Below, in pieces: positions 219 to 56,662 of a stretch of 64,000 nucleotides of DNA. A model generated the notes under the pieces. The model was not told the DNA's origin. It worked only from the letters and a program-made list of their open reading frames with translations, and did not search any database. Position numbers and translations under genes: made by a program. Position 1 is the first letter of the stretch. Every line of letters starts with the position of its first letter. Source of the DNA: Vermamoeba vermiformis (lineage: Eukaryota); contig JBEWZL010000066.1 in NCBI GenBank assembly GCA_045837725.1, positions 124,001-188,000 of the forward strand. Reading direction: 5' to 3'.

Positions 219-2409
219 ATGGAGCACAACAACAGTGAATTAAATAATTTTAATTACTTCGAGGCCATACCGGGCGAAGTCCAAGCCAAAATTTTCAATT
301 ATTTAACGTTGAAAGATCTCGTTGGAAGGTTAGCGAGGTAAGCTACAAAAATATTATTCAGGTATTATTTTTAATTATTCTAATTATTATGGTCGTAGAT
401 CTTCAAAACACGTGGCGAATATTATTCAAAATTCATTATCAATCCACGGCGGCCCACATAACTCACTAAACATCTTGGTTACTGGCCACCATGGCGCAGG
501 TAATAAAAGGCAAAATAATTATAGTAATATAAACATAAATGATTCGTTAATAAGATAAACAACAGATTCGTACGTTACAAAATTTTTTTTTAAATTAACA
601 CTTCATGTTAGGTAGTTCAACGCTATATACTAGACTTCAAGAAGAGCTTGGTATCAATTCGATGGTGAGAAATTTATCGGAATCGAACGAGATCGGATCT
701 ACCTACAAACCCGTTGACGATCGCCGGTGCCAGATCTCCGCAATTAAACTCGAAAATACTCGTGCGAATATATGGCATGGTTCAACTAAGGAAAATAGAG
801 TCAAAAGAATGTACCCTCATTGCGGTGCTGTAAGTAGATTCAGAATCTGGATGTGACCACACGTTTAGACTCTAACAGTTTTCTTATTTTGATCGATAAT
901 ATAGGCTCAATGTATCATTTATGTTGTATCATGCTCTGAAATAGCGACAAGAGGTGATAGTTTGCGTAACGATATTCGGTGCTATCACGCTCTGACCAGC
1001 GATGTTCAATGGATATTTGTCATCAACAAGATGGACCAAGTTCAATATAACGAGCAAGGTATGGCATTAGATGCCGGCTATTGATTATATTATAGTCTTA
1101 TACTTCGATCAGAGTACAACAAGTGTGTCGAAATTATCAAAAAGATAGCGGTGAAAGTGATCGGTGAACAACGCTTGGACAGACTTCATTTCATTCCGAT
1201 GTGCACAAATGATATGAAAATACGCGTAACAAGTGATAATAGCAATCAGAATATGACATGGAATTCGATGAACTTGTGGCGCGTGTTGAATCAAATCGCA
1301 TCCGAGAGTTGTTCTTCGCCTCTCAAAATGTTCAGAAAATTCAAAGCTACTATAATTAGAACGTACGGATGGGTACCAAATGTATCAGGAAAAGACGAGG
1401 GCTTTGTTATCGTTTATGTACTGGGTATGGAATTTCGTAGAAATATTTTTTGGATCCGGCGCTAATTGATTCGATAACGTAGAGGGCTGTATCTCCGTCG
1501 GGGATCATATTCAAATTATTCCAGACCTATTTGGTCCTTATATAGATCAGAGGTACAAATATGCCTCCGTTGAAGTAGTGGGGATCCAGTCGTACAATAC
1601 GAAAAAAACTATCGCCTTGCCCAAGTAAGACCCCTTTCCTCGTAATACATTTTACTAATGATATTATAAGCTCGTATGTCGGTCTTGCGATTAAAAAGCC
1701 GACAGCTCTAGTATACCATACGAAGATCAGGCCAACGCCAAAACCAGTACGCATCCAAACAAAATCGATTTACAGCTTAATTAATACTAATATTTTAATT
1801 TATTAGAAATATTCAATTGTTCATTACCCTGGTATTACACTCTCCAATGAGAAAAAACATGATATTATTTCCACAACCAATGGCGGTGGGATCCGCTTTA
1901 CGAAGCAGTTATCGTGCACGTTGGACATCAAACTGGACGCTATAAATGGCACGGCATGATCCACGAAGTAATATTCATAATCTTACATCAATTAACTTGC
2001 TTATAACCTTCCCTCTTTTTAGGGCTTTGACGCTGCGATCCACAGCATAGGAATTCGAGGAGGCATTAAAATACTTACAATTAGAAAGATCTACGATAAA
2101 AATGGTAATCCTCTAGACTTGGAAGTAGTCAAGAAGGAAAGAAATATGCTCGCGTTGAAAAGAGGCAAGTTTTTTATTTTTCATGAAAATTTAAGCCGAT
2201 CCAAAATTAACAAAATTAAATCAGGCGAAAAGGCGGATGTAACATTATACTCTATGGTTCCTTTGAACGTTACCATACGCGATAGCCCTCATTCTATTAA
2301 TGATGTTAACGGTCGCTTCGTCATCCAAACTCAAAACAACCACGTTGTTGCCGTAGGAGCAATTGTCAAAATACAAAACCCTTTGTTCGCTGATCAATCA
2401 AATAACTAA
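219..2409 (+). CDS. F-box protein fused to a divergent eEF1A/eRF3/HBS1-like translational GTPase fold (probable pseudo-GTPase); multi-exon, possible frameshift near 1850-1905
   Basis: Exon 1 encodes an F-box (FEAIPGEVQAKIFNYLTLKDL). Spliced exons then give NSLNILVTGHHGAGSST (cf. eEF1A INIVVIGHVDSGKST), VINKMD (G4), GFVIVYVLEGCISVGDHIQIIP and ALPNSYVGLAIK (domain II-like), and KSGEKADVTL...NGRFVIQTQNNHVVAVGAIV (domain III, cf. KSGDAAIV...LGRFAVRDMRQTVAVGVI). Confidence 0.8.
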
Positions 2410-2858: not shown

Positions 2859-3642
2859 ATGCGCGCTCTCGTTTTCGTTATTCTTGCTGCTATTGCAGTG
2901 TCCGCCTACGCTGGCAAATGCGCCTACTTGGGCCAACAAGACTCCAAGGCTGTGGAGTAAGTCAAATTCCGTTTTTTCTTTCAACCGCATGCATCCAAGT
3001 CTTTTCTTGTTTTGTAACATTTTTTTCTTTAGCTCTCACACCACCTTGTGCCCACAATACGCCAGTGACAGCTGCTGCCCTGCCCAGTTCGTTGATTCTT
3101 CTTGCACTTCGTACGACGGCTGCAGACATTATCCTGGTAAGTGCTTAATCGACGTTTTTGTTTGACAGCGTTGCACCAATTCGCCTGGCGAATTGAAGCC
3201 AAAAAAAAACAAACCCCAAAATATCTTCGACTTTACACCTTTTACTGAAATACTATTTATAGACACTTGCGATTTCTTGCAAGGATTGGTTACCTGCGGT
3301 CAACGTTGCAAGCCCGATTTCTATACTAATTATGTGGATTCTACTACTGGCAAAACCCGCTTGTGCGAGCCCTTCTATAAGTCTTTGGAAGAAGCTTGCT
3401 TGCAAGTCAAAGTCTGCGACAGATACGGTAACCGCTCGATCGACTGCCGTCAAAGCTCAAACAGCGGCAGCTGCGAGCTCTACTACACTGACGCCGATAA
3501 TTTCTGGCAAAGCTTTGGTGGTGGTGCTTTTGTCTCTTCCACTGAAACCGACAAGTGTTTCTCCGCCGGATTCGCGGTTTTGCCTTCGTTCATTTTGGTC
3601 GCTGTTGCCTTGATCGCTGCTCTCGTCATACTAAGACTATGA
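2859..3642 (+). CDS. Secreted, probably GPI- or C-terminally anchored cysteine-rich protein, folate-receptor/NPC1-N-like fold
   Basis: Signal peptide MRALVFVILAAIAVSAYAG; LCPQYASDSCC, TCGQRCKP, RLCEPFYKSLEEAC Cys pattern; C-terminal hydrophobic tail; two GT-AG introns (~2958-3032, ~3137-3262). Confidence 0.65.
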
Positions 3643-3873: not shown

Positions 3874-5505
3874 CTAATCTTCATCTTGCACAACGAACGC
3901 AGATCCCGAACATCGAAGTCGCATGAGGATCTGCTCAGCAATATGTTTGAAGCTTGAAATACTCGTGCAGGTGATATGTTTGAATATTCTAAGCCATATC
4001 TCTATCGGAAATACGTTGGTAAAGTCGGATCTTGCGATCTGGATCAATGCTGTAATAGTGTTTATAATAACATCTGCTCGGGACTGCCTGTTTCTGACGA
4101 GTAAATTTTCTAGCTGGAGTCTTGTTTCTTTTGCAACAGACTCGTCCCATGTTACTGGCAAATAAAGTAACGAAGTGTTTTGTTCTAGGGCTTTAATAAA
4201 TGCAGCAGATCCGGCGGCATTAAGACGAGCTTCAATTTCAATACATCTTAAGCATTTGTTTGATGATATTGCGCTGGCTATATATTGAATGCTTTCTTCA
4301 TGTTCACAATTCAAATGTACGTAGTTCAACGTTTTGTTGATTTTGAGGGCTTCGGCGATATATTTGCAGCCTTCTAATCCGATCTTATTCTGATTCAAAT
4401 TTAAGTGTGAGAGCACTTTATTCCTCTTAAGTCCTGCGCTAATAAATTTGCAACCTTCAGCGGTGATGTTGGCTTGTTTCAGATCCAATTCTGTCAACGA
4501 TCGATTGTGCTCTAATAACGCTCCAATAGACGGTGAAATATCCTGTGTTAAATCATTCTCGCTAAATTGTATTCGAGTTACTGATTTATTGCGCTGCAAT
4601 CCGTTCAAAATTATTGAGATCCGCTCAGATCCAAATGCGTTGTAATTAATATTAATGTTGCTGATAGAACTATTAAATGTCAATGCGTCCGCAAATAATG
4701 TGCATTCTTCTATGGAAATTAATGGTTGCAAGGGTCTGTCCCAGTATTTTTTAAGCCGAATAGTCAGACGTGTCACGGATGTCGTTTCTTTCAATGCTTC
4801 AAAAACCGGAATTAAATCGTCGGGTACTACGTTATTAATTCTCTTTGTAATTTCAACATTAGCGATAAGATTTGCTTTGATAAATAGCGCTAATGACTTC
4901 ATTCTTTCCGTAGAAACTCGAAATTTTGGAAAGATGACCTTTGAAATGCACTTCTGCTCTTTAATAGCTTCAATTAATGCCCTCGCTTGTTCTTGAGTAT
5001 ATGATATTTTCGGTACTGATAATTCTTTCAACGAAGTATTATTTCGGAGCCCGTTGGTGAAACTGAAAAAACTATCGTTGTTGCAGATGTCGTCGTGCAA
5101 TTCTTTTAAATTTAGATCCTTCAGGTTACAATTTGGTAATAAATCTCCTATTAATTGAAGAATATTGCTGATTATTTTTGAATCATCGCATTTCATAAAC
5201 TGAAGCGATCGAACAGATGTGTTGATTTTCAATGCTCTAACCGTGTGTTCTAGCAAATCAATATCGCAATGTAAATTCAGCCAATGTAATGTTCTACCAT
5301 TGGCTAAAAGTTGTTCAAACTCTTCTAAATCCGCTTTACACAGCCGGAGTTTCCAGATGTTTCTTCTTCGATCTTGGACTGCCCTCACAGATGGCAAGGA
5401 ATCTTCCTTACAAAGGAAAACCAATACCCTTCCCTTTTGTAGGATGGCGTCCAAAGATTGTTGGGGTGGGGGTATTTTACTTGGAGAAGGATCTTGGGCT
5501 TCCAT
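3874..5505 (-). CDS. Intronless RNI-like (NLRC3-type) leucine-rich repeat protein with C-terminal F-box-like motif
   Basis: 543-aa uninterrupted ORF with ~28-aa repeats such as NRSLTELDLKQANITAEGCKFISAGLKRNKVLSHLNLNQNKIGLEGCKYIAEALKIN; C-terminal VFPIEIWLRIFKHI. Confidence 0.85.
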   Translation of the reverse strand: MEAQDPSPSKIPPPQQSLDAILQKGRVLVFLCKEDSLPSVRAVQDRRRNIWKLRLCKADLEEFEQLLANGRTLHWLNLHCDIDLLEHTVRALKINTSVRSLQFMKCDDSKIISNILQLIGDLLPNCNLKDLNLKELHDDICNNDSFFSFTNGLRNNTSLKELSVPKISYTQEQARALIEAIKEQKCISKVIFPKFRVSTERMKSLALFIKANLIANVEITKRINNVVPDDLIPVFEALKETTSVTRLTIRLKKYWDRPLQPLISIEECTLFADALTFNSSISNININYNAFGSERISIILNGLQRNKSVTRIQFSENDLTQDISPSIGALLEHNRSLTELDLKQANITAEGCKFISAGLKRNKVLSHLNLNQNKIGLEGCKYIAEALKINKTLNYVHLNCEHEESIQYIASAISSNKCLRCIEIEARLNAAGSAAFIKALEQNTSLLYLPVTWDESVAKETRLQLENLLVRNRQSRADVIINTITALIQIARSDFTNVFPIEIWLRIFKHITCTSISSFKHIAEQILMRLRCSGSAFVVQDED

Positions 5506-6423: not shown

Positions 6424-7774
6424 TTATTTCTTAAGGACGTTGATTGGGATTTTGAAGTATGACACGCCGTTCGTGTCAGGATCTGGAAGACGACCAGCGT
6501 TCACATTAGCCTAATAATATTATATAAGTATACTAACCGGCATCTATAATCATAACTTACTTGAATTGAAGGTAAAATCAAGTTTGGCGCGGATAATTTC
6601 TCATCACGAGTGGTTCTCAGGCTAACAAACGTTTCTTCGCTAGTGCCGAGCTTGACGTGAATATTTTCAGCTTTTTCTTTGCCAACTAATATATTCGCAT
6701 TAGTTATAGTGACTATAAATACATCGACGCGCAACTAAATTGGATTCATGAATTGGATCACGTACCGGTTGTTTCGCATTGAGCTTCGCGGCCAGAAGGA
6801 GGATAATCATGGCCTAATATTCATGTAAATACTATGTGATATGTAACAAAATAAATAAGACGTACCAACGAACAGTCTGGTATCGTCGGGCAAGCTGAAG
6901 ATCTTTTGAGTAATGGATTTGTACAAAGTCACGGCAGATCCACCAGGGAAATCGCAACGAGCGGTACCAAAATCAGGCTACATAATAAGCATATATCAGA
7001 CACGTTGAAAAAGGCTTCATTAATTGAATTTCAAGGGTTCATGAAAAGATCCTTACCATGAAAATCGTATCGCCAGTGAATACGCAATCGCCAATGACGT
7101 AACATAAGCAACTAGGTGTCTTTAATCATATATTAATAACCATTAGAATATTAGAGGCCCCGTAATAATATATTAATATCTATTTATATATTAGAGGCGG
7201 AAAGTACTTACGTGGCCAGGAGTATGCAAGATCCTGCCTTTAATAGTTCCCACTGAAAATTCATCGCCGTCTTTGAACAAATGATCAAATTGCGAGCCAT
7301 CAGTGCGCAAATTAGCCATATTAAAGATGGTCTTGAAGTTTGATTGGACGACAGTAATATCAGATCCAATTGCAATTTTACCACCCATCTTCTCGCGAAT
7401 ATAAGGCGCGGCTATAGTAATATATTATTATATGGTGATTTTTGTATTTTAAAATAGCCAGAGATTAGCAATTTCAGCTTGTTTAATGAAAGGTCACAAT
7501 TGATTTCAAAAATCAATTTTAAAAATTCAAAATAATTACCTGAGATGTGGTCTGCATGCGCGTGCGTCTCCAATATCCATTCTACACTAAGACCTCGTTC
7601 TTGGACGTACTTGATGATCGAATCCGCAAACTCCGTCGAAGTTGTGGCGGAATTGGCTTTGTAAATCATAACTGAGTCGATGATCGCGCACTTCTTGCTG
7701 GCCTCATCTTCGACGACAAAGGACCACGTGTTGGTACTCGTTTCAAAGAAAGACTTGACTACAGGCTTGCTCAT
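6424..7774 (-). CDS. Persulfide (sulfur) dioxygenase, metallo-beta-lactamase fold, ETHE1/Blh/PDO family, bacterial type II-like
   Basis: ILETHAHADHIS, HTPGHTP, VFTGDTIFMPDFGTARCDFPGGSA, GHDYPP, C-terminal GRLPDPDTNGVSYFKIPIN; about seven exons; no obvious N-terminal transit peptide. Confidence 0.92.
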
Positions 7775-8042
7775 CTGTTCTGTTGTATCAGAATTTTTCC
7801 TGTTTAAAAAAAATTGAAGGATTGACGCTTATAAGTACTATTGCTATCGGAGTAGGAGTTAATGGCGTCTAGAAGCGTCCAAAGATAATATTATCAAACT
7901 CCGGCGTTCTATAAAAGGAAAGTCACGTGGAGCAATCGTCAGGAGTTTTGTGATTGCGCGGTAATACACAACTCCGACATAAATAGCCGCAACAAATATG
8001 TTTTGTTATTAATTCAATCACTTACAAACGAACACAACAAAA
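7775..8042. promoter_or_regulatory. Putative bidirectional promoter between the persulfide dioxygenase and YeeE/YedE genes
   Basis: 268 bp between divergent ATGs; TATAAAA 7910-7916, TCACGTG 7923-7929, palindrome GATAATATTATC 7884-7895, GGAGTT/AACTCC four times. Confidence 0.55.
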
Positions 8043-9525
8043 ATGCAATGCGAAATTAAGCCTCACGTGCCGCATCAGCACTCCGTTGCCGAAACTATTA
8101 CCAAGTCGCTTATTTCGGCGGCAATAGGCACTGTATTTGGCTTTGCGCTTAATCGAGGGTTGGTGTATCACCCCGTCGTTATTCGCGAGCAATTTATCGG
8201 CCAGAACTTTACTATGATGAAAATGTTTTTGTCGGCCGTAACCAGCAGTTTAATAGTGAATTCAATTATGTCTATCATCCCTCATTTCAAGAACAATTTT
8301 GAAAAATCAAGAGAAAAATACTACAAAGGTAAGCAATTATTTTGAAAATATAATCGCCAATAAAGCTAATTTAAATTCTATTCAGGTCCTTTACCAGCAA
8401 AACAAATTTTGATAGGCGCAGGGCTGCTTGGCGTTGGCATGGCAGTCTCCGGAGCATGCCCCGGAACGGTAAGTGTCTCGGAGGTTTCCGAATGAAAAGA
8501 TTTCTAGATGCGTTCATGAATAGGATCTTACGTGTATTATACGATAGGTGGCCGCACAGATGGGCGCCGGAGTTCCTGAATCAATATTCACCATGATTGG
8601 CTCGTTGCTCGGAGGAACAATTTTCATGTTGTCTGAAAGTGCTTTGGACAGTCCTAAGAAAGCAGATCCAACGTAAGTAATGCATTTAAGCACGATAACA
8701 AACACGTTTGTATCAATTTGAGCGCAATTCCTTCCAAAGCAAAGTCACGAAGGCAAATCCACCAACATTATTGAGTTTGCTACGTTTACTTACTCTTGTT
8801 TGGTTTTAGTGCTACATTAGAAAAGAGATGGAAACTACCTTATGCCGCCGTAGCATTGCCTCTATCGGCCGCTCTTGGAGCATTTGTTTACGTGCTGGAG
8901 AAGATCCGACCATGGACAACCGAAAATCAAGTTGCTTTGACCGCTGTGGGAATGGCAAGTCATTGATATAGCTCTTAGTATATATGATAGCCACAATACT
9001 AACATAATCGCTCTTTTACAGGCTGCTGGTACTCCTTTCAGTTTTTCAAATCTGATCTGGCCTCCTTATGTCGCTGGTGCTCTTATTGGCTTGCTTCAAT
9101 TGTTCAACGTGCAGCTCTTAACGCATAACATCGGTTGCTCGAGCTCATACATGACTGTCTTGGCTCAAGGCGCTTACAACTTGTTGCCGGAGAGCCTCCA
9201 CAAGCACATCCACCTTGCCTTGCAAAAGAGATCTGGTCTTAGTAACTTGATGCAACCGACATTTGTGGCTGGTGCAATTTTGGGCAGCTACTTCGCTGGC
9301 AGCGCCGTCCACATCACTTCCTCGCTCTTTTCAAGCCCGCTCCGATCTTTCCTTGGCGGATCTCTTTTGCTTTTTGGTGCTCGCGTAGCTAACGGTTGCA
9401 CGTCAGGTCATGGTATTTCTGGCTTTTCAAACTTGAGCTGGAGATCTTTCCTAGCCGTTGGAGGAATGTTTGCTGGAGCTTTTGTTGCTGGCCTTAGTCT
9501 GAAGGCCGCAGGATTATTCCATTAA
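8043..9525 (+). CDS. YeeE/YedE family (Sulf_transp) thiosulfate/sulfur transporter, two halves in one chain
   Basis: FGFALNRG, GVGMAVSGACPGT, WPPYVAGALIG, NIGCSSSY and FGARVANGCTSGHGISG signature motifs; multiple hydrophobic segments; about five exons. Confidence 0.9.
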
Positions 9526-20151: not shown

Positions 20152-23100
20152 TTATTTGGGCGTTGGTGTTGTGCTGCCTCCAAGTCCCAAATCTATCGAA
20201 AAGGAAGATCGCAGAGCGTTGGGTGTGATAATAGGAGAGAAGAAGCTAGGGCTTGGCGGTGGCAATGAGAAGCTGCCGCGGCTGTTCGTTAGCCCAGTCA
20301 AGAATGGCAATGGCGAGGGCGAAGGAGAGGGTGAAGGGCAGCCCAGCAAATTGCCTCCTGGGGACATCGGATCTCCAAAGAACTTTGGTGTGAATCCACT
20401 GTTGATACCCGGCAGAACAATATTAAAGGGTGATGAGGGTGCCGGGAGGGTGCTTGGCACGGGAGGGAACTTGAATGCGGAGCCTACTTGGTCGTTGCCA
20501 GCGCTATGAACACGAGGGTTAGCACGCGTAATTTGATCGTCAAAAATAATTGCCAGCCAAAATCTATCTTTCTAAATTCTTTGCAATATGTTTGCAGTAC
20601 TTACTTGGCTGATTCTTTCTTGACTTCGACTTCAGGCAAGTTAACGCTAGGAACACTCATCTTGTTCGCGGATAAGAGTGATTGGTGTTCTTGCATTATT
20701 AGCCTGTTGTACAGAATGGCGCCAATAGGGCAACGCTCGTTGTATTCGCCGAGCATAGTAAGACCCTTTTTAGCCAAAGTTGACTCTTGGAAGTGACGGC
20801 CGACTTGGATGGCGTAAGACAATGCGAGAGCGGTCGAAGGATCAGCAACGAAGAGGCGTTTTTGCTTCTCAAAGCACTCAACCGCCATTAGTACGGCATC
20901 GATGGCCTAGTTAATAAATTAGTTCAACGTACTTGGCAAATAAATTTGAAATCCCAAATATGGTTAATTGTTTCGGGGGATCGGACCAATTATCCGAACG
21001 CTTACCTGAGCTTTGAAACCAAGGTGCGATAATACGATGGCTCTGCAAGCGGACACGATGACGCGGAAAGCATTGAAGGCGTCCAGGTCAAATCGGTCGT
21101 TTTCTTTCATCTGTTCGACGCCGTTGTTGATCGCTTCTTCGGTTTCTTTTAGGTACCGCAACATCGATCTACAAGGATTGGTTAAATGCGCCCGTAGATA
21201 CGATAGGTTAGACATGTTTGACGTACTGTAATTCCATTCCTTCTTTAGATGTGACTAAAACAGGCGCAGAAGGCAGGGAAATAAAAAGATTCGACGGAGT
21301 TTCGCGCAATAGCGGACTACGAAATAATTAGATTACGCTCTAAACATGACGCACTAGGACGTACCTGATCCACACAAAGGCTAGCATAACGCGGTTATCC
21401 AAAGTTTGTCCTTCTTTAGGGATCGACTCCGCTTTGGTTAGCCTTTTAAGACTTGGATTAGCTCCATGGTTCACAAGACTAAGGCTCGGATAAACTTACC
21501 AGTGCAGCCGATCGTCTGATGATTGGCTCATGCCTACAGCCATGGCAATAGTTCTGTGGTAGATCACTGGATGTAGGGCACTGTCATTTTGCAATCGCAA
21601 GAAGTTCCAAGCGTGCAAGAAGAATGCGCGAGCGGCATCGACCTCATCGATGGTGAGCTTGAAGATACCAAGCAATAACAACGTGCTCACGAGCATCGTC
21701 AACTATGATACGAAACACGGTTAGATCGTGTAATGCATTGCGAAATCAGAATTGGCGCACGAGATCTCGAACAGAAACTGAAACAATTTCGCGCTTGTCA
21801 GTCAGAACTGATACTTACCAATTGAGGAACGCCCACACCTTGTGTATTGAACAAGAATTGCTTGACGAGTTGCTCGGTCCTCTCCGCGAATGCTAGAGCT
21901 CGTTCATCGCTGCGCATACAACGGTAACCTGCGAGTGCAAAAAACTATAATTAGTGTCTCATTTCGGAACAATAAATTGATATGATCGCGCGGAACAATT
22001 TCTGGGTGACATCCACGCGAAAAACAAGAATGCACAAGTAATTACAAATCATAAAGATACGACACATATTAAATTAATCGGTAATAATCTTGCGCTGCCA
22101 TTCTATTCATGATTTGTAAAATTTATCGAAATCGCATCTTGAAGTTGGATTCATGAACAAATTAGCGCTAGATTGTACTAGTCGGAACAATTTATAGGCA
22201 TAGATGGAAGTCCTCTTGTCTTTAAGCTATAATGCCCAGAACAATTTAAAAAGCGAGAATCTGCACCAGATTTTGGCGACACAGTGTAAATTTGTGAATC
22301 CGTTCGATAACAATTCAAGAAATAAAATTTAGTCTGACTGCGCGCAATTTGAAATAAAATATAACAACGGCATAAGGGATTAAGATTTACGCTTACCGTG
22401 CATGAAAAGAGCGCAATAGTAGCCCATCTCGATAAATTGAGCGGGATTTGTTAGGCTGTTCGTGGGTCCGGTCGCTACCAAGTCCCAATAATACCACGCT
22501 TTGTGTTCATCCAATGGGTAAACGCTGGCAAAGGGAAATATTCTTCCGAGATCTTCCGTGACACTCGAGAGTAGAACCTTTGCGTCGTTACGATTAAAAG
22601 AGTCCTTTGAATTGCTCGTTTAAATCCTGCAGCGTATTTGTGTTGGAAATATAAGAATATACCTTGAAGTGCGCGGGGATTGTTGCTCCGCTCGTCAGAT
22701 TTCGGCCTTTGGATTCGTTTGTTCCTTTTTCGTCAGCAGCCAATTTGCCAGTATATGCCGTAAATAGGTTTGCAGATACTGCTGCAACATGAGGCGCTGT
22801 ATTAGCCTTTCCTAAAAGTGGGCTGTTCGATTGTGGAATGTGCAAAGGCTCACGCGAATCCACCACTTTCGGCTCGGGTTTCTCTTTCTTTACGCGTCTG
22901 GGTTGTGGTGGGCTTGATTCGTCGCTCGATCCACCCTTCTTCTCGCCCTTGGGCTTAGGTCCGCGCTTCGTTGGCTCTTTGTACACGCATTCTATTCCTC
23001 TCTTTTTACAGTTGCTGCAGATCTTCTGTCCATTGCATCGTCGGTGCAATGCGCGGCAATTGAAGCACGCGTTGGATACATATCGCATTTGAGAGCGGGA

Positions 23101-23289
23101 GAGTGGGTTCTTTGGCTTGCCGAGTTCGTCGTTCGAGTCTGGTTCTTGTTTTACTTGTTTCATGGGAGATTTACTTTCGTATTGATCATTCATAATCGTG
23201 TTAATGCCTGACGATGATGAATGTAAGTGTCCAGGGGCTGGATTATCAATAGCATTTGCTAAGTTCATTAGATGTGTCAGGTCGGTCAT
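20152..23289 (-). CDS. Zn(II)2Cys6 (Gal4-type zinc cluster) transcription factor with helical middle region and Pro/Ser-rich C-terminus
   Basis: ACFNCRALHRRCNGQKICSNCKKRGIECVYKEPTKRGPK; downstream exons splice in frame (VLLSSVTEDLGRIFP..., GYRCMRSDERAL...) to a Pro-rich last exon ending STTPTPK*. Confidence 0.85.
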
Positions 23290-24561
23290 GCTGGGCAGTT
23301 AGGTGTTTTTAGTTGCTGCGGGTGGTGTAGTGATGTTATTGATAGTGGCAACCTATTAAGCTGACTAAATATGAGCTGAAACTGAAGCTGGCAAACTAAT
23401 TGCAAATTCCGCCCTCGATCTGGATCCGCACTTGTTGTCTTCTTCAAGACTATCAAAAATAAAGTGTGACGAGTTATGTTATCTGATAAGAACACGGAAA
23501 AATTATGCTGATTACGAAAAGGAAAAATACAAAATGAAAACGGAACCCACGGAAAAAGCCCGAAAAATAGCTATCACGTGCCTCAAAACAGCGGAATTTC
23601 AGGGGATCTCCCACGTGCGTTACTTAACGCTAAAATTGTAACCTTCGAAAGAACAAAAATATCTTTTTATCATTTTGCATTAACTTTTATGATCAGCTGT
23701 CATAAGTCTCGCGACGATTTCGCGTGCAAAGAGGCACATCCAACCTTGGAACAGACTCGACTCAGAGCCAAATATTTCAGTCTTCTTCCAGTACTTTAGC
23801 TTATTCTTTCAATCGTACAGGCTTGTTTTGGCGAACTAAGTTGATTTACGCGAGTTAGGTCAAAATTTGTTTGAATTTTCCTTTTATAGCAAATAAGTGT
23901 TTCTTACGGACAAGCTGATTCTACGCGCTCTCTCGTTTAAGAGTGTTGAGACACCAATATAACCTCGGAATACTGTAAGGATCATCAGTTTTAAAGGACT
24001 TTAATTTTTCCGTGTTTGTAACCTACAAAAAAATATTCTTTATTTAACTGCAGCCTCGAAACGTATACTTTACCAAGGCAAGCCGTTAATTATATTCGTA
24101 CTCGTGCCACTAGTTAAGCCAATAGAAACTGCGTGAGTACTCATCTCCGCGATCTCTTGTGTCATTACCGTCCTGTTCCAAACGCAACTGACAATAGTAT
24201 CAATCTAAGCCCACCTAACCAATATGTGCGTAGTGATTTGGTAATTTGGTTCGATGGTTGAATTTCACCCGATAAATCTTTTCTTTCCCAGCTAATCGTA
24301 ATTGCACTGTCCTTTTTTACGGTCCGTCGTCATCACCTTCTGCGTAGGAGGTACCTCCGCGAAAGTATGGCACTTGAGGTACTCATTATAAAGCGTTTGT
24401 AACAATAGCGAAACAAAAAAATAAGGAAAATTTTTACTTGACGGCTATTTTCTTATTAAAGACAGAGCCATCTATAATACAACAAGTCAGCGAGTACTTG
24501 CCATTGTAAATAGGAACGTTGTATTATAATCGCTTGAAAGTACATACAGGCGGTTGGAAAA

Positions 24562-39100: not shown

Positions 39101-40079
39101 TCTGTTCGCTTTTGTAAGAGCACGAAACTTGGCGTATAGTCAGAATTACAGTAATAATCATTATGATAGTGCTTTAGTTTGTTGGAAGGTCTTGGCGTGA
39201 TGAAAGCGAGCACGATTAAAAATGCCATCGATGTCTATCTTTTGATTTACGACTTCGCTGACCCGAGGTTTTTTGACGTACGTGATTGGTCAACCGATTA
39301 ATTAATAGGCATTTAACTAATAGAATTCATTTCAGATCCACGAGTTGATTTTCTATCTTATCACGACTTGGCCGAGAAACGCTTATGAAGGCATTCGCCA
39401 GTCAAATTTGGCAGACTGGCTCCTTTTCCGTATCAAAAAAGCGAAGTCACAGGTAAGCTTTGTTCATTTAATATAAGGCATTGGATTAATAGTTTTGATA
39501 GGAGCAGATGGCGCCGTGCTTGTACGTCTTTGCGACTTGTGCAGTATTTTATGGCATTGACTTTATCTCCGTAAGTTCGGTGAGTTCTTTCTTAGAAAAA
39601 GTGACTAACGTAACTGATATTAGATGGAACTTTGTGTTGATGACCCTAATGAAGACGAGTTCGAGTCCTCCGATCAATACTTGGCGCGAATCATACCGTA
39701 CTGCAGAGCGTTGTACGTGGATGCATCAAAGAGCGATATGGACAGTCGTTGGATGGAAAAATTGATGTACGTGAAGTTTATGCGGAACTTTTTGATCTTG
39801 TACGCCATCTATCTCGTTCATAATCACTCGGGCGAGATTTCCTTGTTGACGAAGGTCGAAGAGTATGACTCAGATGTCCTCAAGGTCGTGATAGCGAGCG
39901 AAAAGTCATTCGATACAGGCGTGCCTGAGTTGAACGAGTACTTTAGAGGACTGGATCTGGACGGTCTTTGCAAGGCTTTGTCATTAAAACGGGTTGTGTA
40001 CTCAGACGAAGAAGACGAACCCGTGGATAATGTTTCGTTCGAACGAGAGGATGATGATATGGAAATAAATGACGAATGA
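36189..40079 (+). pseudogene. F-box array copy 2; full length but with two apparent frameshifts (~36549, ~37751)
   Basis: GVKRSRE...KKLK, MLPEELLMQILVRVPKK, DFWRLSC, VDWQFYYKLR, SDDWKIKASA, DTGVPELN, acidic tail; in-frame TAG at 36559-36561 and TAA shortly after FAGLVGL. Confidence 0.65.
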
Positions 40080-40253
40080 GATCTGCTTTGGATCCGGAAT
40101 AATTATTACCGTCTAAAAAGTGGATTTGAGAAAAAGGTGCTCTTTTTCGCAATGGAACCGACTGTGATTCGCAATAGACGGTAGTTTTTCGCAGGCACCA
40201 AATATTACTGGGATGTCATTTATCTATGAGGACCTCAGCCTACGGACACAACA

Positions 40254-42280
40254 ATGGCAGCACAAGTTGGAAGGAAGCGCAATCGTGATCTAGATCAGGA
40301 CTGCCGTGTCACAAAAAAAGCAAAATTATTTATACCGACATCTATATGTAGTCTACCTGACGAGATATTGCTGCAGATACTTGCGGTAGTACCGAAAAAA
40401 TATCTAGGTAATTTTCCTCTGCATCTAAAATTCCAGCATTACCTTACATAACGATTACGGTTATTGAAAAATATGCTAATATTATTGCAAAAATATAGCC
40501 GCAATTTCAGAGGTCTCCCAGAAATGGCTGCGGATAACGAACACGCGAGACTTTTGGAAGCTGTTCTGTCGACAAAAATGGCCGACTATGGTTGCATCAG
40601 ATGATTTAAATTTTAAAATCACAGATTATATAATTCCTGCTTCAAACGGTAGAAACAAATCAGTGATCAAGTGTTACGAACGATTTGCCTATCATTGGGC
40701 CAAAATTGCCACACAGGAAGAGCGGCAACAAATCATCGAGGCGCTGCTTAATGCTATTTCTTATGAATACAAGTTTGGGCAAAACGATGTACCTTCCTCC
40801 TTATTAGAAGAAAATGATGGCAGTCCTGAAAATTATCCTCAAACTTGGAACGAGTTACAAAAAGAGCACAATCAGCTTGAGAAGCTCGATTGCATCGGCA
40901 CACTCCCCACAGCTCCGTACTTTATGTCAAGAGTGCATATTAAACCGTTCAATTCGGTGACGCACTACAGCATCAGGCATTTTCAGGTACGTAACGCAGT
41001 AATTACTATTAGTGCTAAGTTATGTTTGATTAGACAGTACAAAACTACATCACGGAACTGCTCAAAATAATCAAGTACCCTCTGTTTAAAGGAATGTACG
41101 TGCGTCATGCCCAAGACGTGCTTCACGCAGTACTTGCCACGTTTCGTTGGCATCTCGACAGCAGCATGAAATGCTTTGCTATAATTGACCTCATGCAGTA
41201 CGTCAAGGAAGAGATGGAACCGAGTGATTTGAGCAGATACATTGGTATCATTCTTTATCGCCTGTTGGAAAAATTGCAATATTCTTCTTTTCTGTTGTAC
41301 GACGAAAAGCTGAAACAAGGAATTGCGCAATTGTTTCACTACGTAAGTGTTTTATATAGGTGCTGCACGAATATTTGATTGACGCTTTGAATCAGTGCTT
41401 GAAAGTCCTGAACGAAATTCCGGAACTCTCCAATGTTTACATTATTACAAAGGCCATCAACATCTGTTTAAAGATAGAAAAGTTCTCAATTCCACAAGTA
41501 GCGCCGGTACGTGAAAAATTAACTTGGTGTTGACAGTACGTTAAGACAATAATTACAGTTGGGCGAACTTGTCTCTACTATTTCATCACGCAGTGGCCTC
41601 GGTACACGCACTCAGCAATAAAAGAGTCCAAATTAGGCCCTTGGCTCATTAAACGTATCACAGAAGAGGCCAAATCTCCGGTAAGAAGTTCAGTTGAATT
41701 TCTGAGGTCATTACGCTGACTGTATCTCCGCTTGCAGGAAGAATTAACTCCTCTTTTGATGGTGTTTACTTTCACTGGTGTTTTATACGGCATTGATTAT
41801 GTTTTGGTACGTTTGAGGAAACTAGTCGGGATCCAGCATTGACACGTTGACATGTCCAAACAGGAAGCTCTTTGTGTAGATCCAGTAATACACAAATATA
41901 ACTCGCGCGAAAGCTACTTAGATATGATTATACCTCATTGCCAAGTGTTATACAAAGCTGTCCGCAGAGGCAAAATCAAGCTCAGTCCGCTGCGTCACAA
42001 TTATTTACGCAAATTTTTGATTTTGAATGCAATCTATTGCGTAGACAGGTACGCGGGAGGCATTGCTGCCATTCCTAAGCAAGGACGCGATAATATTGGA
42101 AGGCTGCAAGATGCGATCGCGGACGATAAGCTTGATACTGGCGTGCCGAAACTGAACAAGCTCGTCAAACGTCTGGATCTCGCTGGAATTTGCAAAGAGC
42201 TGTTCGTACAGCCAGCAGAGCATGAGGAAGAATACGAAATGAGCGATGAGGACTACGACGATATGTTCATCAGAGTTTAA
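40254..42280 (+). CDS. F-box array copy 3; short form with in-frame internal deletion of the central region
   Basis: N- and C-termini closest to copy 1; exon 2 (YIIPASN) runs directly into SVIKCYERF, which lies ~1.7 kb further downstream in copy 1. Confidence 0.75.
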
Positions 42281-43189
42281 GTGCTACAAAGATACGCTTG
42301 GATACGCGGATAAGTCCTATTCAATCGACGGAAAAAGTCGTATCAATGTCACGCTGACAGCAAAATTAAATCGAAAAATAAAACGACAAAATTACGCAGT
42401 GTTGGATAACAAACACTTCTCCCGCCCTGTTTATTAATATTTGTTTTATTTAATGCACCAACGTAACTTAAGGGAAGCGTATTAGGTCCAAATGCGTTCG
42501 CGCCATTCTTCTAGGACTGTGGATGTACGCACGAAGCGCTCGATCACCGCAGCTTGTGTCCCCAAAACAAAAAATTGCGATACTGCGTATTTGTGTCGGA
42601 ACAATTGCCAGATACTTGTCACTAATACGTCAGTGGCAGGTAAGTTAATGGATTTAATTTAAATAATTTCAATTATTTACGGTATTGAAAACAAATGACG
42701 CTAATGTTCTGAATATTTATAGGGGAATATATATGAAGTAAATCCCTTTTATTCCGCGTCTTGTGTGAAAAATCGAGCCATCCCATCCGCTCCGTGTTGC
42801 AGTATGAGTGAGACAAAATTATTGCAACGAACCTAATCTTCGTTTGCCAATACTTAATTCCTAATTTAGCATTATTAGAATTTGTCACAAAGCGAGATTA
42901 GTGTTTCTTTGGCAAATTCAAAAAATCTTGCACGGGTGATACGAATTACCAACAGTTACTCCCCGTGATTTGGTGGGTCAGTTATTAACTATGACATCAC
43001 TTTAACAGAATAGGTTATTCATGATAAGGACGATCGACGTCTCGGTCTACGAAGGATTGGTGTGGTTCGAGCGTTTTTACTAATTATGGCAACAAATATT
43101 TAATCTCAGAGAAGACATCAGAAGCACATTATTTTATCCGTTCAGCCATCAGCACCACAACACAAGAGCCGCAGGGATAAAGAAAGCAA

Positions 43190-45161
43190 ATGATTCTTCG
43201 GTCATACATCCTGGTCGCCGCGCTCGTCTTGATTTCAGTCAACACCGTCCGTGGAGTCGTTCGCATCGATTCTGGACCACTCAATGGAACGGAATTCGAC
43301 TCAGCGCAGATCTATAGAAAAGGTAACACGTCTTACTATGCAATCATGAACTAACTGGAACAAATCTGGTAGGTGATGACTTTTCGGCAAAATGGGCGAC
43401 TATTACAGGCAAACTGGTAAACCATACTTCCGGCGATATTGAAGGCAATATCGTCTATTTGTTTCGTTGGTCTAGAACGACTTTTTGGCAAACGGTTATC
43501 AGTCTTAGAGATCAAGGCGCAATAGCTGTACTGCACTTGGGTGAAAACGGTAACGAATTTAAAAAGATGCATCATAATTACGTCGATAGAGCCATACCTA
43601 TTTCAATATTGATTCAGTCACAATATTATGCAGAGAATTAAAATAATCAGTCTGACGTTTGACGTTTTGGCGTGCCTTTCATCTTAATTAATTACTGATT
43701 CTCCGCGTATTGAAACAGTTGTTCCTGGTCGAGAGTTTTGCGTCTATACTGGCGAAGCGGCAGAAGACATTGGAATACTTGCCTATGAAGTTTACTTTAG
43801 AGACTGGGCGGATGCGCAAGCCATGGTGGACAATGGAACTGAAATAATTATTACGATAGTTTCAGATGGTAGGCGAGATAAGGATAGACGATTCATTATT
43901 TTATGCTATTTTTAGAAAAGAAGCCTTCGCGAATCCACTTTATAAAATTTAACTCCTCATACCCGTTTTTAACTTTTTCTTTGATTGCAGGCAACCCATG
44001 GAGCGACATAATTACTGGTCTTGGTCCTATGCTCGTCTGGCGAGTTGCTCTTGGCGGAGCAACAGTTGGAGTGATGATTTACGCGTTGTACAAACTGATT
44101 ATGTTTGTAAGAGTCCAAGGATCGCATTTCAACGTGCCCCAAGTATGCTTGGCCCTGGAAATCATTGCGAATATTTGTAAGTTGATGTTGTCAAATCTTT
44201 TTACGTTTGACGTTTTGGATCTGCATCCGTGGATCACTTTAGTCCGCTAATTTGATGTGGTACTAATTGATAATTTGCCCTTCGCCATCAAACGATATAC
44301 CTTATTGCGATTCTAATTCATTTCGTCTCAGGGCGTATCTTTTTATTCATTGTTGACCCGATCGGATGTTTTCAAGTAGTTCCGACGGTGTTCTCGCTCT
44401 TTGTCAACGGCATTTCTCTTCCATTCGGAACGGCTACATTCGTGTTGATAACCTTTTACTGGTAAGAATTTTCATGAACGCTTTTCTTCTGGTGAAATTG
44501 AATTTGTTTTGCCTTATTAAGAAATTAGTTAATCTCACCGTTAATATTACCTGTTACTTAGGCACGAGATCATATCGGATTCGTCGATTACGATCCATAG
44601 ATTTTTGCACAAGCTTCAAGTCCCGTTCTACGTCATCTTTTTGACCCTTATCGTCGTATCCACAGTCTTGACAATTTTGAGTTATTACCTTGACTTTGGA
44701 GCCACAAAACCGATCATCATCATTTATTTGTGCATATCTGGGTTATTTTTGGGCTTCTACATCTATACTGCAATCCAAATCGGCAGGAGAATGCGAGCCG
44801 GCCAAAAATTGAAGCGCGCAAGACGACTTAATAGAGTAAGCAATACATATTTACTATATTGGCAATAATAGTAATTAATATTTTCCGGCAGATTAACACG
44901 AAGATGATTTTGAACGCCGTTGGCAGATTGGCCCTGATCGCGACGGCAATTGGCTACTCAGTTGCCGATAAATCGCCCATCGCCTTTGTGGTTGCCACTG
45001 ACTTTTTATTTGCTATGATGGTATTCGATTCGTGGACCAGAGTTTATTTGTTCGAATGGGCTACAGGCAACTCCTCCACATCCGGCGTAAAGATGGACGA
45101 GCGAGAGTCCGAAAAACAGACCGTCGTGGACAACATAAGCACTGCAACTCCAACTCCTTAG
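43190..45161 (+). CDS. Signal peptide + PA-like extracellular domain + seven-transmembrane receptor-like protein
   Basis: MILRSYILVAALVLISVNTVRG; DIEGNIVYL...LRDQGAIAVLHL (PA-domain-like); about seven hydrophobic segments (WRVALGG, PQVCLALEIIANI, TFVLITFYWHE, etc.); Ser/Thr-rich tail. Confidence 0.7.
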
Positions 45162-45308
45162 GGGCAATTGTAAATATACTGTAGTTTGTTGCAATCGACG
45201 TGTAAAGTTTTGTATCAGCCAGCAATTAAATTTGCCATTTTTTCAGTACCTTAACAACACAAAACCACTCCTTAGGTCCTTTGCTGGTTCGAAGACTTTA
45301 TTTTGATA

Positions 45309-48300
45309 ATGTTTTCGAACGCAGGAACTAAGCGCAGTCGCGAGATCGACAATGATGGTGCAGATCATGTTCTGAAAAAAGCAAAATTTGATAATGCAGA
45401 AATTTATGATCTACCAGAAGAGGTATTGATGCATATACTCGTTAGAGTTCCTAAAAAAAATCTAGGTAATGGATGTCATTAATTCCTGTAAATAATATTA
45501 TTGAAAAATATCAAAAAATGCATACATGGAGCTAAAATTATTTAAATTAGGAATTATACGCGAAGTATCCAAACTATGGCACCAGATCGCTCAGAAGAGA
45601 GATTTTTGGAAATTGTCGTGTCAAAGAAAATGGTTTACGATGGTAGCCTCGGATAGCTTAGATTTTGATCAAGAAGAATATTTCATTCCGATATTAAATG
45701 GTAAGTCCAATTATCTGACCGCAGATCAGCTCAATCTAATTTGTTACTCGAAGTAAATGGCAAGAAGTTGGTAGATTGGAAGTTTTATTACACACTTAGG
45801 TAATAATTACTTACCTATAATAGAAGTACTAAGGGTTCTATTTAGAAACAAGTTCTACAAATTAGGCAAACGACTTGCTCCTATTTTAATCAGCGTTGGC
45901 GAGCAAGACACTGCAGAAATATTTACAAACAGCAGCGAACTTCATATTTCAGCGGTCAACAAGTGCTTAGAATTCGTGACTTTCCTGTCAATCGACGTCG
46001 GTTTTGAGGAAGAAATAACACAAGCTTTTGACTTTTTGTGCGATCTGGCATTGTTGCATTACAACCGCGATGACAAGGAATGGTTCTATCCAATTGCCGA
46101 CCTGATGGATCTTTTAAGCGATAGAAAGGCTCTTAAGCCCGGCCAATTCGGGTACGTTAAACGGTTTGCTAGATCTGATCGAAGACTCAACAATTATTTT
46201 GTCCAGCTTATGCAAGCGTGTGTTTGAGCTCAGTAAGCTGGTCCTCGAAGAAGATCATGTGCGTTTTAGAGAGCTGTTCCTCATAGCTACCCGAGTGCTG
46301 CACTCGTTTTCGAGCATTGAGGATCCTCAGTTGCAGAAGTTAATTAAAATGATGGCCGAGTTTATGGTTCACCTTGGATCCGTGGATTTTGGTCAGGCTG
46401 AGATTGGCAGCACCCCGAAATTTCAGTTTCCGCTCCCGAACGGCGATGTTATCTTATTGAACAAGAAACTAGCAAAAAACAAACGTACGTACTTAAACTT
46501 AACGTGATTACGCTAATTAAACACAGCCATTTTGAATATGGTCTTCGACATTCTTACCCAAGCGTACCGTGAAAGCGACGATTGGAGGATCAAAGCAAGT
46601 GCTGTGTGCGTCGGATGGGTGCCTTCAGTATCAAGTAGAAATTACCTGAGGAGTTACTGCGAGTAAGTGTAGTGTCTTTAGTACCGAGCATCAGATCTGA
46701 TTTAACTTTTAAGCTTTGCGATTACGGCCGCAGAAAACGATGACTTGAAAATAGCCTTTGCGGGCATGGTTGGCTTGCACAACTTGATAGCGGAATATGA
46801 AGTCAAAGCGCCTTACGACAATGAAGATCAGCTGAAAAAAATGTTTGAACTATTCGTGTCATCTTTGACTCGGTTTTCAGAGGAGCTGCGGTAAGAAAGC
46901 GTTAAAATTTCAACCGTAGCATCTAATGCCTTATCAGAGTATTCTTCTTCGATGATTTGCTGCTATTGCTGCAGGACATTCGATCTGAATCAGTCATCGA
47001 TGATAGTCTCGATAGATTTATCGCAAATGTTGTCAGCGTATTTCCGCTGATAGAGTTTAGTGTCAATCGCCTGAATCTATTTTCAACAATCGGAAAAGCG
47101 TTTCAAAGCCGTCTATCAAGCGTAAGTAATTAATTAATTCAGCCGTCCATCATTGACACGACAAGACAGAAACTACCGCTATTAAAAGAATTGTTTTTTG
47201 GATTAATACAAACCAAGAACGTACAGCCTGAAGAAGTGCTCAAGGCTTATATTAAATTGGGTAATAATTATTATCAATTTTACGATAACTTAACCTAATA
47301 ATTAGCCTTTTTGGATACTGTTTCTGACCTTATATTAGGCACAGAAGTCAAAGGAGCAGAATTCGCCGACGAGTTCAGAAGTATTGCGAAGCAGATTGTC
47401 GAGGGAACATTGCCGTTTGAAGTGTCGCTGATCCGGTGCTACTCACTTTTCGTCGAGACTTGGATCCAGTTCGCGGAGTCTGAAGAAGAAAAGAATGATA
47501 TCGCTACAAGATTGCTCGTTGCCATTCCAGCAGAAGTATATGAGTTCGGACAAAGTGAACCAATGAAAACACAGCATCTCGCTGGCCCAGCAGACTATCC
47601 CGTAACATTTAACGAGCTCCTGAAGCGACACGGTAGTGACGGTGGTGCAAAACAAGCTCCCGTTAAGTCCAAGCCACCAAGATTTGCAGCAAAAGAGCAT
47701 TTGAAGCCTGTCAATCCGAAGGGCATCATTGACCAGGACAACGGTCATGCACTACGTGACGTATGTGACATTCAAATTGTTTCGAAGCGTTAATTAATGG
47801 AATATAGGAAATTATTGCCACCAATAGTTATGCTATACAGCTGTTCAGGATAGTGGCCGAAGAGAGTAGAATCCTTCAACATTGTGCACAAGATTTATTG
47901 CACGCGCTGTTGGCGGGCTATCGTGTCATGGGCAGCCCCGCACTCTGTAGAGCAGTGTTATCTTTGCTAGCCTACGTCAAGGTAGAGATGGACGCAGCAG
48001 ATGTATACAAGTACGGCGAGATCATGCTCCACACAACGCCTCGAACAGTTTTGCAATTGAATGACATGACCACCTTCTTGGCGTGGCTACCAGTCCTTTC
48101 GGATGCGTTCGTAGCTGTAAGTCACCAGTAACTAATCCGATCCTAATTAACAAATCTGCAGTGTTATGATGCCTTGGAGTCAGCGCCCAGCGTGGTTCAT
48201 TCAAATGCAATCGGTGATCTACTCACCTTTTATCTGCTGCTCTACGATTGGCCTGTTAGAAAACTTGCTGACGTAAGACAGTACTATTAGTGAGTACGTA

Positions 48301-49084: not shown

Positions 49085-49184
49085 ACTGGCATAACGTTGT
49101 TTTTTCTTGGACTAAAATAATCGACAACCACAACGGTTTTGTTATTGTTATTACTCACAAGCATTACTTACGTAATATGCAACA

Positions 49185-56566: not shown

Positions 56567-56662
56567 AGGAGCTAATTTCGCAGAATAAACATTTTTTGCA
56601 AATACCTTGGATTGAAAGCAACATGATAACTCGCTATTTTTCTTTCGAAAGAAACAATTACA

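Follow-up and report, generated by a model that had tools for sequence, protein, structure and literature searches.

Positions 219 to 2409 on the plus strand of a 64,000-nt stretch of Vermamoeba vermiformis DNA (assembly GCA_045837725.1, contig JBEWZL010000066.1, positions 124,001 to 188,000; the whole stretch is hereafter called the window) hold a genuine, spliced, and conserved eukaryotic gene that encodes an F-box followed by an EF1-family body with a disabled GTPase site. We propose, with a probability of roughly 55%, that the product is a lineage-restricted F-box protein that carries a complete three-domain EF1-family body as its only other module and serves as a substrate receptor of a Skp1-Cul1-F-box (SCF) ubiquitin ligase, recognizing its substrates via the pseudo-GTPase. 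Judged from its sequence, the body is nearest to Hbs1, aEF1A (the archaeal EF1A), and eRF3. An earlier note, made from the letters of the stretch alone, had already read an F-box upstream of an EF-family body here, and the same architecture with the same intron positions was found in a metagenomic locus, L001, in which the F-box-like match reaches 26.4 bits.

A spliced gene with a syntenic counterpart

Sequence reading and exon modelling give one open reading frame (ORF) of 510 codons in 11 exons that starts with the ATG at 219 and ends with the TAA at 2407-2409, with GT-AG borders in nine of the ten introns and GC-AG in the remaining one (2165-2224). L001, the one locus returned by a scan of metagenome contigs, has an intact gene of 10 exons and 511 residues; each of its introns lies at a codon position also used in the window, and the two genes are 47% identical over 489 aligned codons. 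Two further family proteins, P0006 (395 residues, from a 1314-nt contig) and P0007 (241 residues), are contiguous across many intron positions and appear to derive from transcripts or intron-less copies. Sequencing run X1 comes from a close relative; its "RNA" label is a guess, and its contigs are 89 to 100% identical to the window per aligned piece. Expression of the gene is shown by the spliced X1 contigs together with the transcript-like P0006 and P0007. The features of the model are the following:

219-337 (+): exon 1, which contains the start codon and the initial half of the F-box (IPGEVQAKIFNYLTLKDLVGRLA)
338-398 (+): intron 1, at the codon position of the L001 intron
399-499 (+): exon 2, encoding what is presumably the remainder of the F-box, then the opening G-domain strand (LNILVTG) and the GHHGAG part of the P-loop; covered by X1 contig 1 over 452-497
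500-611 (+): intron 2, GT-AG, splitting a P-loop codon; absent from X1 contig 1 (joint 497|610, cut +2)
612-829 (+): exon 3, completing the P-loop (SST) and carrying the switch-I remnant EIGST and, at the G3 position, HGST (776-787); covered by X1 contig 1 over 610-829
830-904 (+): intron 3, GT-AG; absent from X1 contig 1
905-1058 (+): exon 4, core of the G domain with NKMD (1025-1036); Pfam GTP_EFTU at E=0.0062 on the exon alone
1113-1424 (+): exon 5, G5 region IPMCT, end of the G domain, and start of domain II; matched exactly by X1 contig 2 (1112-1424), and the junction NEQ|E(Y/F)NKC reads through without a gap in P0006
1483-1624 (+): exon 6, domain II (EGCISVGDHIQIIP ... IQSYNTKKTIALP); its junctions are the same in L001 and contiguous in P0006 and P0007
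1671-1746 (+): exon 7, end of domain II (NSYVGLAIKK...)
1807-1831 (+): exon 8, an inferred 25-nt microexon (KYSIVHYP) that opens the family-specific linker between domains II and III
1832-1908 (+): frame-break region, coding in L001, P0006, and P0007 and out of frame in the window
1909-1967 (+): exon 9, which encodes the initial strand of domain III (VIVHVG...YKWHGMIHE), aligning to aEF1A "IiVi.HP..I"; X1 contig 3 covers 1908-1967
1968-2022 (+): intron, absent from X1 contig 3
2023-2164 (+): exon 10, domain III (GFDAAIHSIGIR...), with "EGY.AAIH" on aEF1A "GYTPVLH"
2165-2224 (+): the final intron, a GC-AG intron of 60 nt that keeps the reading frame and has no stop codon; joint 2162|2223 in X1 contig 3, shiftable by up to 4 nt
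2225-2409 (+): exon 11, end of domain III (GEKADV...GRFVIQTQNNHVVAVGAI) and stop codon

Contig 1 of X1 runs 452-497|610-829|905-947 and contig 3 runs 1908-1967|2023-2162|2223-2290, and the three X1 contigs confirm four introns: intron 2, intron 3, 1968-2022, and the GC-AG intron at 2165-2224. Since no read or contig lies over exon 1, the exon 1-2 junction rests on conservation and not on RNA. Conservation also extends to the exon 6-7 junction, where "ALPNSYVG" is kept in all four family sequences, and to the last intron, at whose codon L001 has a GT-AG intron. Keeping the GC-AG intron in the transcript would insert 20 residues into domain III.

Raw RNA runs X2 to X4, which carry the same species label, gave 83, 78, and 34 matching reads, of which 81, 77, and 34 lie only partly on the stretch; most of the matches fall in the poly-T tracts at 100-190 and 2466-2647 and are uninformative on expression. 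A few reads at 1101-1191 (depth of at most 2.4) overlap the beginning of exon 5 in part, with 4 to 5 differences, and beyond it no longer resemble the window; their source may be a relative, or a family member in another organism.

L001 is syntenic with the window: it also has counterparts of the MBL-fold gene at 6528-7774 (minus strand) and of the Sulf_transp gene at 8034-8972 (plus strand), with 77 to 92% amino acid identity. Between the window and L001, the nonsynonymous divergence (dN) is 0.05 to 0.18 for these neighbors and 0.47 for the F-box/EF1 gene; synonymous divergence (dS) is saturated, and no omega can be given. By the synteny and the contrast in dN, the two genes are positional orthologues whose evolution is several times as fast as that of the genes next to them.

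Over the shorter distance to X1, the aligned pieces contain 37 differences, 18 of which were listed and classified. Among these 18, 11 are synonymous and 7 nonsynonymous, compared to 190 synonymous and 698 nonsynonymous sites, which corresponds to a dN/dS of about 0.17 (binomial p=3e-4). Three of the four codons of the HGST motif carry a synonymous change (at 781, 784, and 787). All this points to purifying selection on the gene, and the ratio lies far from the value near 1 that the earlier note had named as speaking against it.

The family is hardly represented in protein collections. A search of 1.84 billion representative proteins with exon 5 gave four relatives at E<=0.001 (E 2.1e-29 to 2.9e-16), all of them prokaryote-style ORF calls on eukaryotic DNA that run through introns (metagenome, Logan, and ENA sources). 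Both P0003, which is one of the representatives, and P0006, which came from a separate search, are labelled "translation elongation factor EF-1alpha" by their source, which is a mislabelling. No family protein of NCBI or UniRef origin turned up in the searches of protein collections, none of 16 candidates was scored when the exon 5 search was set to longer lengths, and tblastn detected no paralogues of the gene model within the window.

The F-box

Exon 1 contains the F-box motif IPGEVQAKIFNYLTLKDL; the N terminus of the protein, FEAIPGEVQAKIFNYLTLKDLVGRLA, is F-box-like and leads about 20 residues on to LNILVTGHHGAGSSTLY. The LPxE..IF.yL...DL motif of helices 1 and 2 of the F-box (Pfam PF12937/PF00646) is present. 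With exon 1 of L001, the Pfam F-box-like family gives 26.4 bits (E=5.9e-6), which is over the cut-off of 24.3, and with exon 1 of the window it gives 15.4 bits (E=0.016), which is under it, next to PRANC at E=0.0057. In-frame sequence upstream of the window ATG is not conserved with L001. F-box, P-loop, and G3 are covered by two sequences only, those of the window and L001.

The EF1-family body

Single exons say little about the body: Pfam searches with nine exon pieces gave weak F-box and GTP_EFTU matches only. We therefore rely on profile comparison, in which a four-sequence family alignment (the window and L001 models, P0006, and P0007) was compared by hhalign to 30 archaeal aEF1A sequences; alignments A3, A5, and A6 were excluded because fragments were misplaced in them. 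Over the full length, the match has a probability of 98.3% and E=1.1e-14 and spans 373 columns, with query 57-501 on target 3-420 of 421. The G domain alone reaches E=7.9e-13, with all five column-shuffled controls at E>=0.15. Domain II alone gives E=3.5e-3 and 7e-4 at aEF1A 246-291 (column-shuffled controls E>=0.1), and domains II and III together give E=3.4e-4, with all five column-shuffled controls at E>=0.15.

The family libraries agree with this picture. P0006 matches Pfam GTP_EFTU with 27.6 bits, over the cut-off of 26.5, and its counterpart of exon 11 matches GTP-eEF1A_C at E=2.1e-4; the latter match and that of P0007 to the same family (E=0.064) are both under the 27-bit cut-off. In P0007, GTP_EFTU_D2 (E=0.049) and GTP-eEF1A_C (0.064) are the sole Pfam families at E<=10, and they stand in the correct order. 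Taken together, the sequence comparisons strongly support the G domain and moderately support domains II and III, so that of the three translational-GTPase domains claimed by the earlier note, the first is firmly placed and the other two less so.

Scores of hhalign against single sequences are 39 to 78 for aEF1A and 65 for CysN, and 23 for EF-Tu and 25 for SelB. The wide lead of aEF1A and CysN over the other two places the family in the EF1 branch (aEF1A/eEF1A/Hbs1/eRF3/CysN). In NCBIfam, P0002 matches CysN (E=2.9e-6) and EF-1alpha (E=8.7e-6). A bacterial CysN origin was considered and rejected: the NCBIfam library is without Hbs1 or eRF3 models, so the CysN match places the branch only.

Hbs1 of Schizosaccharomyces pombe (3mca_A) ranked top in all three PDB searches that returned EF proteins, followed by aEF1A and eRF3, with E=4.5e-4 for P0006, 1.1e-3 for the family profile, and 0.31 for P0002; yeast eEF1A appeared at E=1.2 or was not listed. 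The earlier description of the body as eEF1A-like thus holds for the EF1 branch, but Hbs1 and not canonical eEF1A is the best solved relative. By the PDB ranking, the family has a possible affinity to the Hbs1 subfamily.

The nucleotide site

The alignment to aEF1A places the nucleotide-binding motifs as follows:

G1 (canonical GHVDHGKST): GHHGAGSST in the window (484-499 and 612-622, +) and GLPGAGSTT in L001, Lys to Ser in 2/2 sequences
Distance from the P-loop to switch I: some 25 residues less than in aEF1A
G2 (canonical ERGxT): EIGST in the window and EISST in L001, which may preserve a remnant of the Thr
G3 (canonical D-x-P-G-H): H-G-S-T-K in 2/2 sequences (HGST at 776-787, +), Lys in place of the catalytic His
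G4 (canonical NKxD): NKMD (1025-1036, +), kept in 4/4 sequences covering the motif
G5 (canonical SAx): S-A in 4/6 lineages; P0001 has T-A and the window C-T

From the window alone, the earlier note had read the Lys-to-Ser exchange in the P-loop, HGST in place of DxPG, and the retained NKMD; the profile alignment and L001 agree with the first two, and every sequence that covers G4 agrees with the third. G2, which it had given as lost, is rather degenerate, since EIGST and EISST align to ERGxT. The motifs GxxGAGS[ST]T, HGSTK, and NKMD are common to the window and L001 despite an overall identity of 47%. Half of the residues differ between these two orthologues, yet the changes are the same, so the nucleotide site has been redesigned in a conserved way and is not decaying. 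Given the motif losses, canonical GTP hydrolysis is very unlikely.

The protein may still load guanine nucleotide without hydrolyzing it and act as a Ski7-like adaptor, or its F-box may serve a Skp1 complex other than SCF; in either case, it would not be a degradation receptor. Retention of NKMD in all four sequences and of S-A in four of six lineages suggests that the guanine pocket is still selected, and the GTPase-like domain of Ski7 binds GTP and is proposed to be GTP binding but not hydrolyzing (PMC4509514). However, both sequences that cover the P-loop have Ser in place of the Lys that contacts the beta and gamma phosphates, Asp and Gly of DxxG are lost as well, the nucleotide site of Ski7 is described as resembling that of active translational GTPases (PMC4509514), and the retention of NKMD may be structural. 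We consider both forms of this adaptor reading unlikely.

A frame break between domains II and III

The earlier note did not contain one complication, a break of the window frame at about 1843-1866, where the linker joins domain II to domain III. P0006 ("KYHIIHYP-ITL") is matched by the frame of 1807 over 1807-1842 only, and from about 1866 to 1967 the match continues in the frame of 1863. To stay open, the ORF needs the inferred exon 1807-1831 and an inferred intron 1832-1908 (77 nt; GT at 1832, AG at 1907-1908). The junction 1831|1909 is shown by no read in the runs searched, and the number of open splice paths from exon 6 to 1909 (586) does not discriminate. The sequence suggests that a new splice, made of the microexon and the 77-nt intron, probably bypasses the break; a 1-nt assembly error in the A/T-rich stretch, which would account for the break just as well, is a distinctly weaker candidate, and a truncated window copy is weaker still.

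If truncated, the window copy would be a pseudogene or a decaying gene whose protein ends before domain III, and only L001, P0006, and P0007 would be functional. Indeed, the latter three read straight across the region where the window shifts frame, and the rescue requires an unusually short exon of 25 nt that is supported by no read. On the other hand, X1 contig 3 stops exactly at 1908, after the AG, just as contig 2 does at both confirmed borders of exon 5, and the changes listed 3′ of the break (2097, 2106, 2112, and 2113) are all four synonymous in the proposed frame. No stop interrupts any of the remaining exons, and every splice site is intact. Furthermore, the skipped stretch is variable among the relatives and aligns to no aEF1A residues and is, therefore, a linker insertion and not a core strand. 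A first placement of the start of domain III by eye, within 1832-1908, was ruled out, as the profile alignments put it at "AVI(V/L)HVG". On balance, decay of the window copy is unlikely.

Proposed function

An F-box protein is characterized by the binding partners of its second module. In our model, the F-box would dock the protein on Skp1-Cul1 to give an SCF ligase, and the hydrolysis-dead GTPase body, fixed in one conformation, would be the substrate-recognition module. EF1-family bodies bind their exchange factor and the factor site of the ribosome, and eEF1B prefers nucleotide-free EF1A. They also bind aminoacyl-tRNA or the tRNA mimics eRF1 and Dom34, according to a survey of translational GTPases (PMC4342817). 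The likeliest ligands of the pseudo-GTPase would be these normal partners of the EF1 family, that is, a tRNA-shaped protein (eRF1- or Dom34/Pelota-like), aminoacyl-tRNA, eEF1B, or the factor-binding site of a stalled ribosome, and the ligand bound by the EF1-like body would then be ubiquitylated. An SCF adaptor is a reasonable reading because the architecture recurs in the orthologue and the gene appears to be under purifying selection.

Several observations weigh against it. The fast evolution relative to the neighbors could also reflect relaxed constraint, and the frame break would truncate the window copy unless it is spliced around. Exon 1, exons 6 to 8, and the exon 1-2 junction have no RNA coverage in runs X1 to X4 (gap 1465-1828). 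The Pfam F-box match spans profile positions 1 to 22 of 47, and the second half of the F-box was not detected in the exon 2 pieces of the window and L001. Taken by itself, domain III has no significant match to aEF1A (E=0.05 to 0.16 at positions 329-418, compared to 0.04 to 0.7 after shuffling), and five PDB searches (phmmer with P0007 and with exons 4 and 11; the A2 and A7 family profiles) returned no EF-family protein. Finally, structure prediction, which the earlier note had expected to reveal an EF-Tu-like fold, gave a divided answer. The fold of P0006 predicted from family sequences only has a mean predicted local distance difference test (pLDDT) score of 46.5 and no Foldseek match at E<=0.001, its weak rows mixing EF1-family chains with Ku. 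The fold seeded with aEF1A (pLDDT 66.1 overall, 73 to 96 in domain III, and 26 to 68 in domain II) matches eRF3, aEF1A, eEF1A, and Hbs1 structures with E=1e-14 and a template modeling (TM) score of about 0.5 in Foldseek, but it is not independent, since its alignment included aEF1A rows.

The body might also dock in the manner of Hbs1 or eRF3 at the A site and GTPase center of stalled or vacant ribosomes, or on a Pelota/eRF1-like partner, and so bring the SCF ligase to the ribosome. Without GTP hydrolysis, the protein would not be released from the ribosome. We hold this for unlikely, judging from the sequence; if true, ribosome-associated quality control would have a further branch, new to science, that arose from the fossil of a translation factor.

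A further possibility, raised in the earlier note, is a decoy: the dead body would mimic a host EF1A-family factor, and pathogen or toxin proteins that attack it would be captured and ubiquitylated, or their attack would be sensed. A body that is catalytically disabled yet conserved fits a bait, its nonsynonymous rate is 3 to 9 times that of the syntenic neighbors, a pattern often seen in conflict genes, and a leucine-rich repeat (LRR) gene and a secreted Cys-rich gene, both absent from L001, lie between the F-box/EF1 gene and the syntenic neighbors. However, a good decoy should resemble its target, and this body is about 20 to 25% identical to aEF1A and did not reach yeast eEF1A at E<1; because of this low similarity to real EF1A, a surface recognized by effectors is unlikely to have been kept. 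Moreover, the dN/dS of 0.17 to the close relative gives no sign of positive selection. The gene content of the window also lends no support to the proposed setting, an amoeba under attack by Legionella, as a Zn2Cys6 gene gives it a fungal look. A decoy is improbable. That the F-box exon and the GTPase exons are separate genes, or that the EF-like similarity arose by chance, is very improbable, even though exon 1 is without RNA coverage and single exons match families weakly or not at all, given that exon 2 holds both the sequence right after the F-box motif and the P-loop, that no Met occurs from the F-box to the P-loop, that layout and intron phases are repeated in L001, and that the profile comparison gives E=1e-14.

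If the substrate-receptor reading is correct, a translation-factor body as the second module of an F-box protein would tie ubiquitylation by SCF to the partners of EF1-family factors, such as tRNA-shaped factors of release or rescue, exchange factors, and the ribosomal factor site. The family is also a clear natural case of a translational GTPase turned pseudo-enzyme, with phosphate-binding and catalytic motifs rebuilt in a conserved manner and the motif for guanine specificity retained, and it offers a useful test case for how pseudo-GTPases work. It is invisible to current annotation, being present only as ORF fragments among 1.84 billion representatives, and was recognized only through splicing-aware reading of raw DNA.

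Neighboring genes

Directly 3′ of the F-box/EF1 gene lies a small Cys-rich gene (2859-3642, plus strand) that has two or more exons and begins like a signal peptide (MRALVFVILAAIAVSAYA); it is missing at the corresponding position of L001. It is followed by an open frame of 543 residues (3874-5505, minus strand) with RNI-type leucine-rich repeats (LRR_6 E=4.4e-6) that ends in an F-box-like string (FPIEIWLRIFKHI); L001 lacks this gene at the matching position. Window 6528-9522 and L001 4885-7151 contain the conserved pair of an MBL-fold gene (HAHADH, minus strand) and a YeeE/YedE-like Sulf_transp gene (plus strand), the latter from a family unusual in a eukaryote. An open frame at 22594-23298 (minus strand) has a fungal-type Zn2Cys6 binuclear cluster domain (E=1.6e-8), which by itself would suggest a fungus; further Pfam rounds on the window gave no other decisive pointer to the kind of organism. 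At 39624-59391 (plus strand), about five copies of a multi-exon gene form a tandem array with three recurring exon classes and 31 to 49% identity within a class; four ORF pieces tested gave no Pfam match. The array piece at 40480 opens like a second F-box half (VSQKWLRI..FWKLF), and the array may represent a second, expanded F-box family.

Comparison with known systems

Among known proteins, aEF1A, the archaeal counterpart of eEF1A, is collinear with the F-box/EF1 family across all three domains by profile match, and several aEF1A signatures are shared: ALPNSYVG lies on A.PGDNIGF, EGY.AAIH on GYTPVLH, GEKAEV on TGDAAIV, and GRFVI..VVAVG on GRFAIRD..TVAAG. The family differs from aEF1A in its catalytic motifs, which are lost, in having 6 additional residues after G5 and an insert of 20 to 30 residues in the linker between domains II and III, and in an identity of only about 20 to 25%. 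CysN, the GTPase subunit of the bacterial sulfate adenylyltransferase, is matched by hhalign (Escherichia coli CysN, E=4e-8) and is the equal-best NCBIfam match for P0002, but it is an active GTPase that pairs with CysD, unlike the family described here.

Hbs1 of S. pombe (3mca_A), the partner of Dom34/Pelota, has the same three-domain order and shares with the family the "NK(M/L)D-x-V/M-x-(W/Y)-x-E-x-(F/Y)" block and the "hFhP(I/M)SA" block at G5. However, Hbs1 has a working P-loop, working switches, and an N-terminal domain of its own, whereas the F-box/EF1 family has an F-box and dead G1 and G3 motifs.

As the earlier note had supposed, no characterized protein of this build emerged: a full-text literature search gave no description of an F-box fused to a translational GTPase. 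The survey of translational GTPases covers eEF1A, EFL, Hbs1, Ski7, eRF3, CysN, and the GTPBPs, and its main text nowhere contains the word "F-box," although its supplement might list unnamed groups (PMC4342817). The receptors of SCF ligases (FBXW, FBXL, and FBXO) likewise place an N-terminal F-box directly before a single protein-interaction module, which in the known cases is WD40, LRR, Kelch, or a similar module and here is a pseudo-translational GTPase.

The nearest precedent for an Hbs1-type body used as an adaptor is Ski7 of budding yeast. Ski7 is described as an EF1-family, Hbs1-derived body that was reused as an adaptor and not as an enzyme, with an N-terminal region that recruits the exosome and the Ski complex (PMC4509514, PMC4342817). 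The likeness has its limits: Ski7 is described as keeping an active-type nucleotide site and binding GTP (PMC4509514), whereas the F-box/EF1 family is without the P-loop Lys and DxxG; Ski7 recruits RNA decay, whereas the F-box points to a ubiquitin ligase; and common descent of the two is supported only to the level of the EF1 family. In sum, the F-box/EF1 gene of V. vermiformis has a new architecture that unites two known modules.

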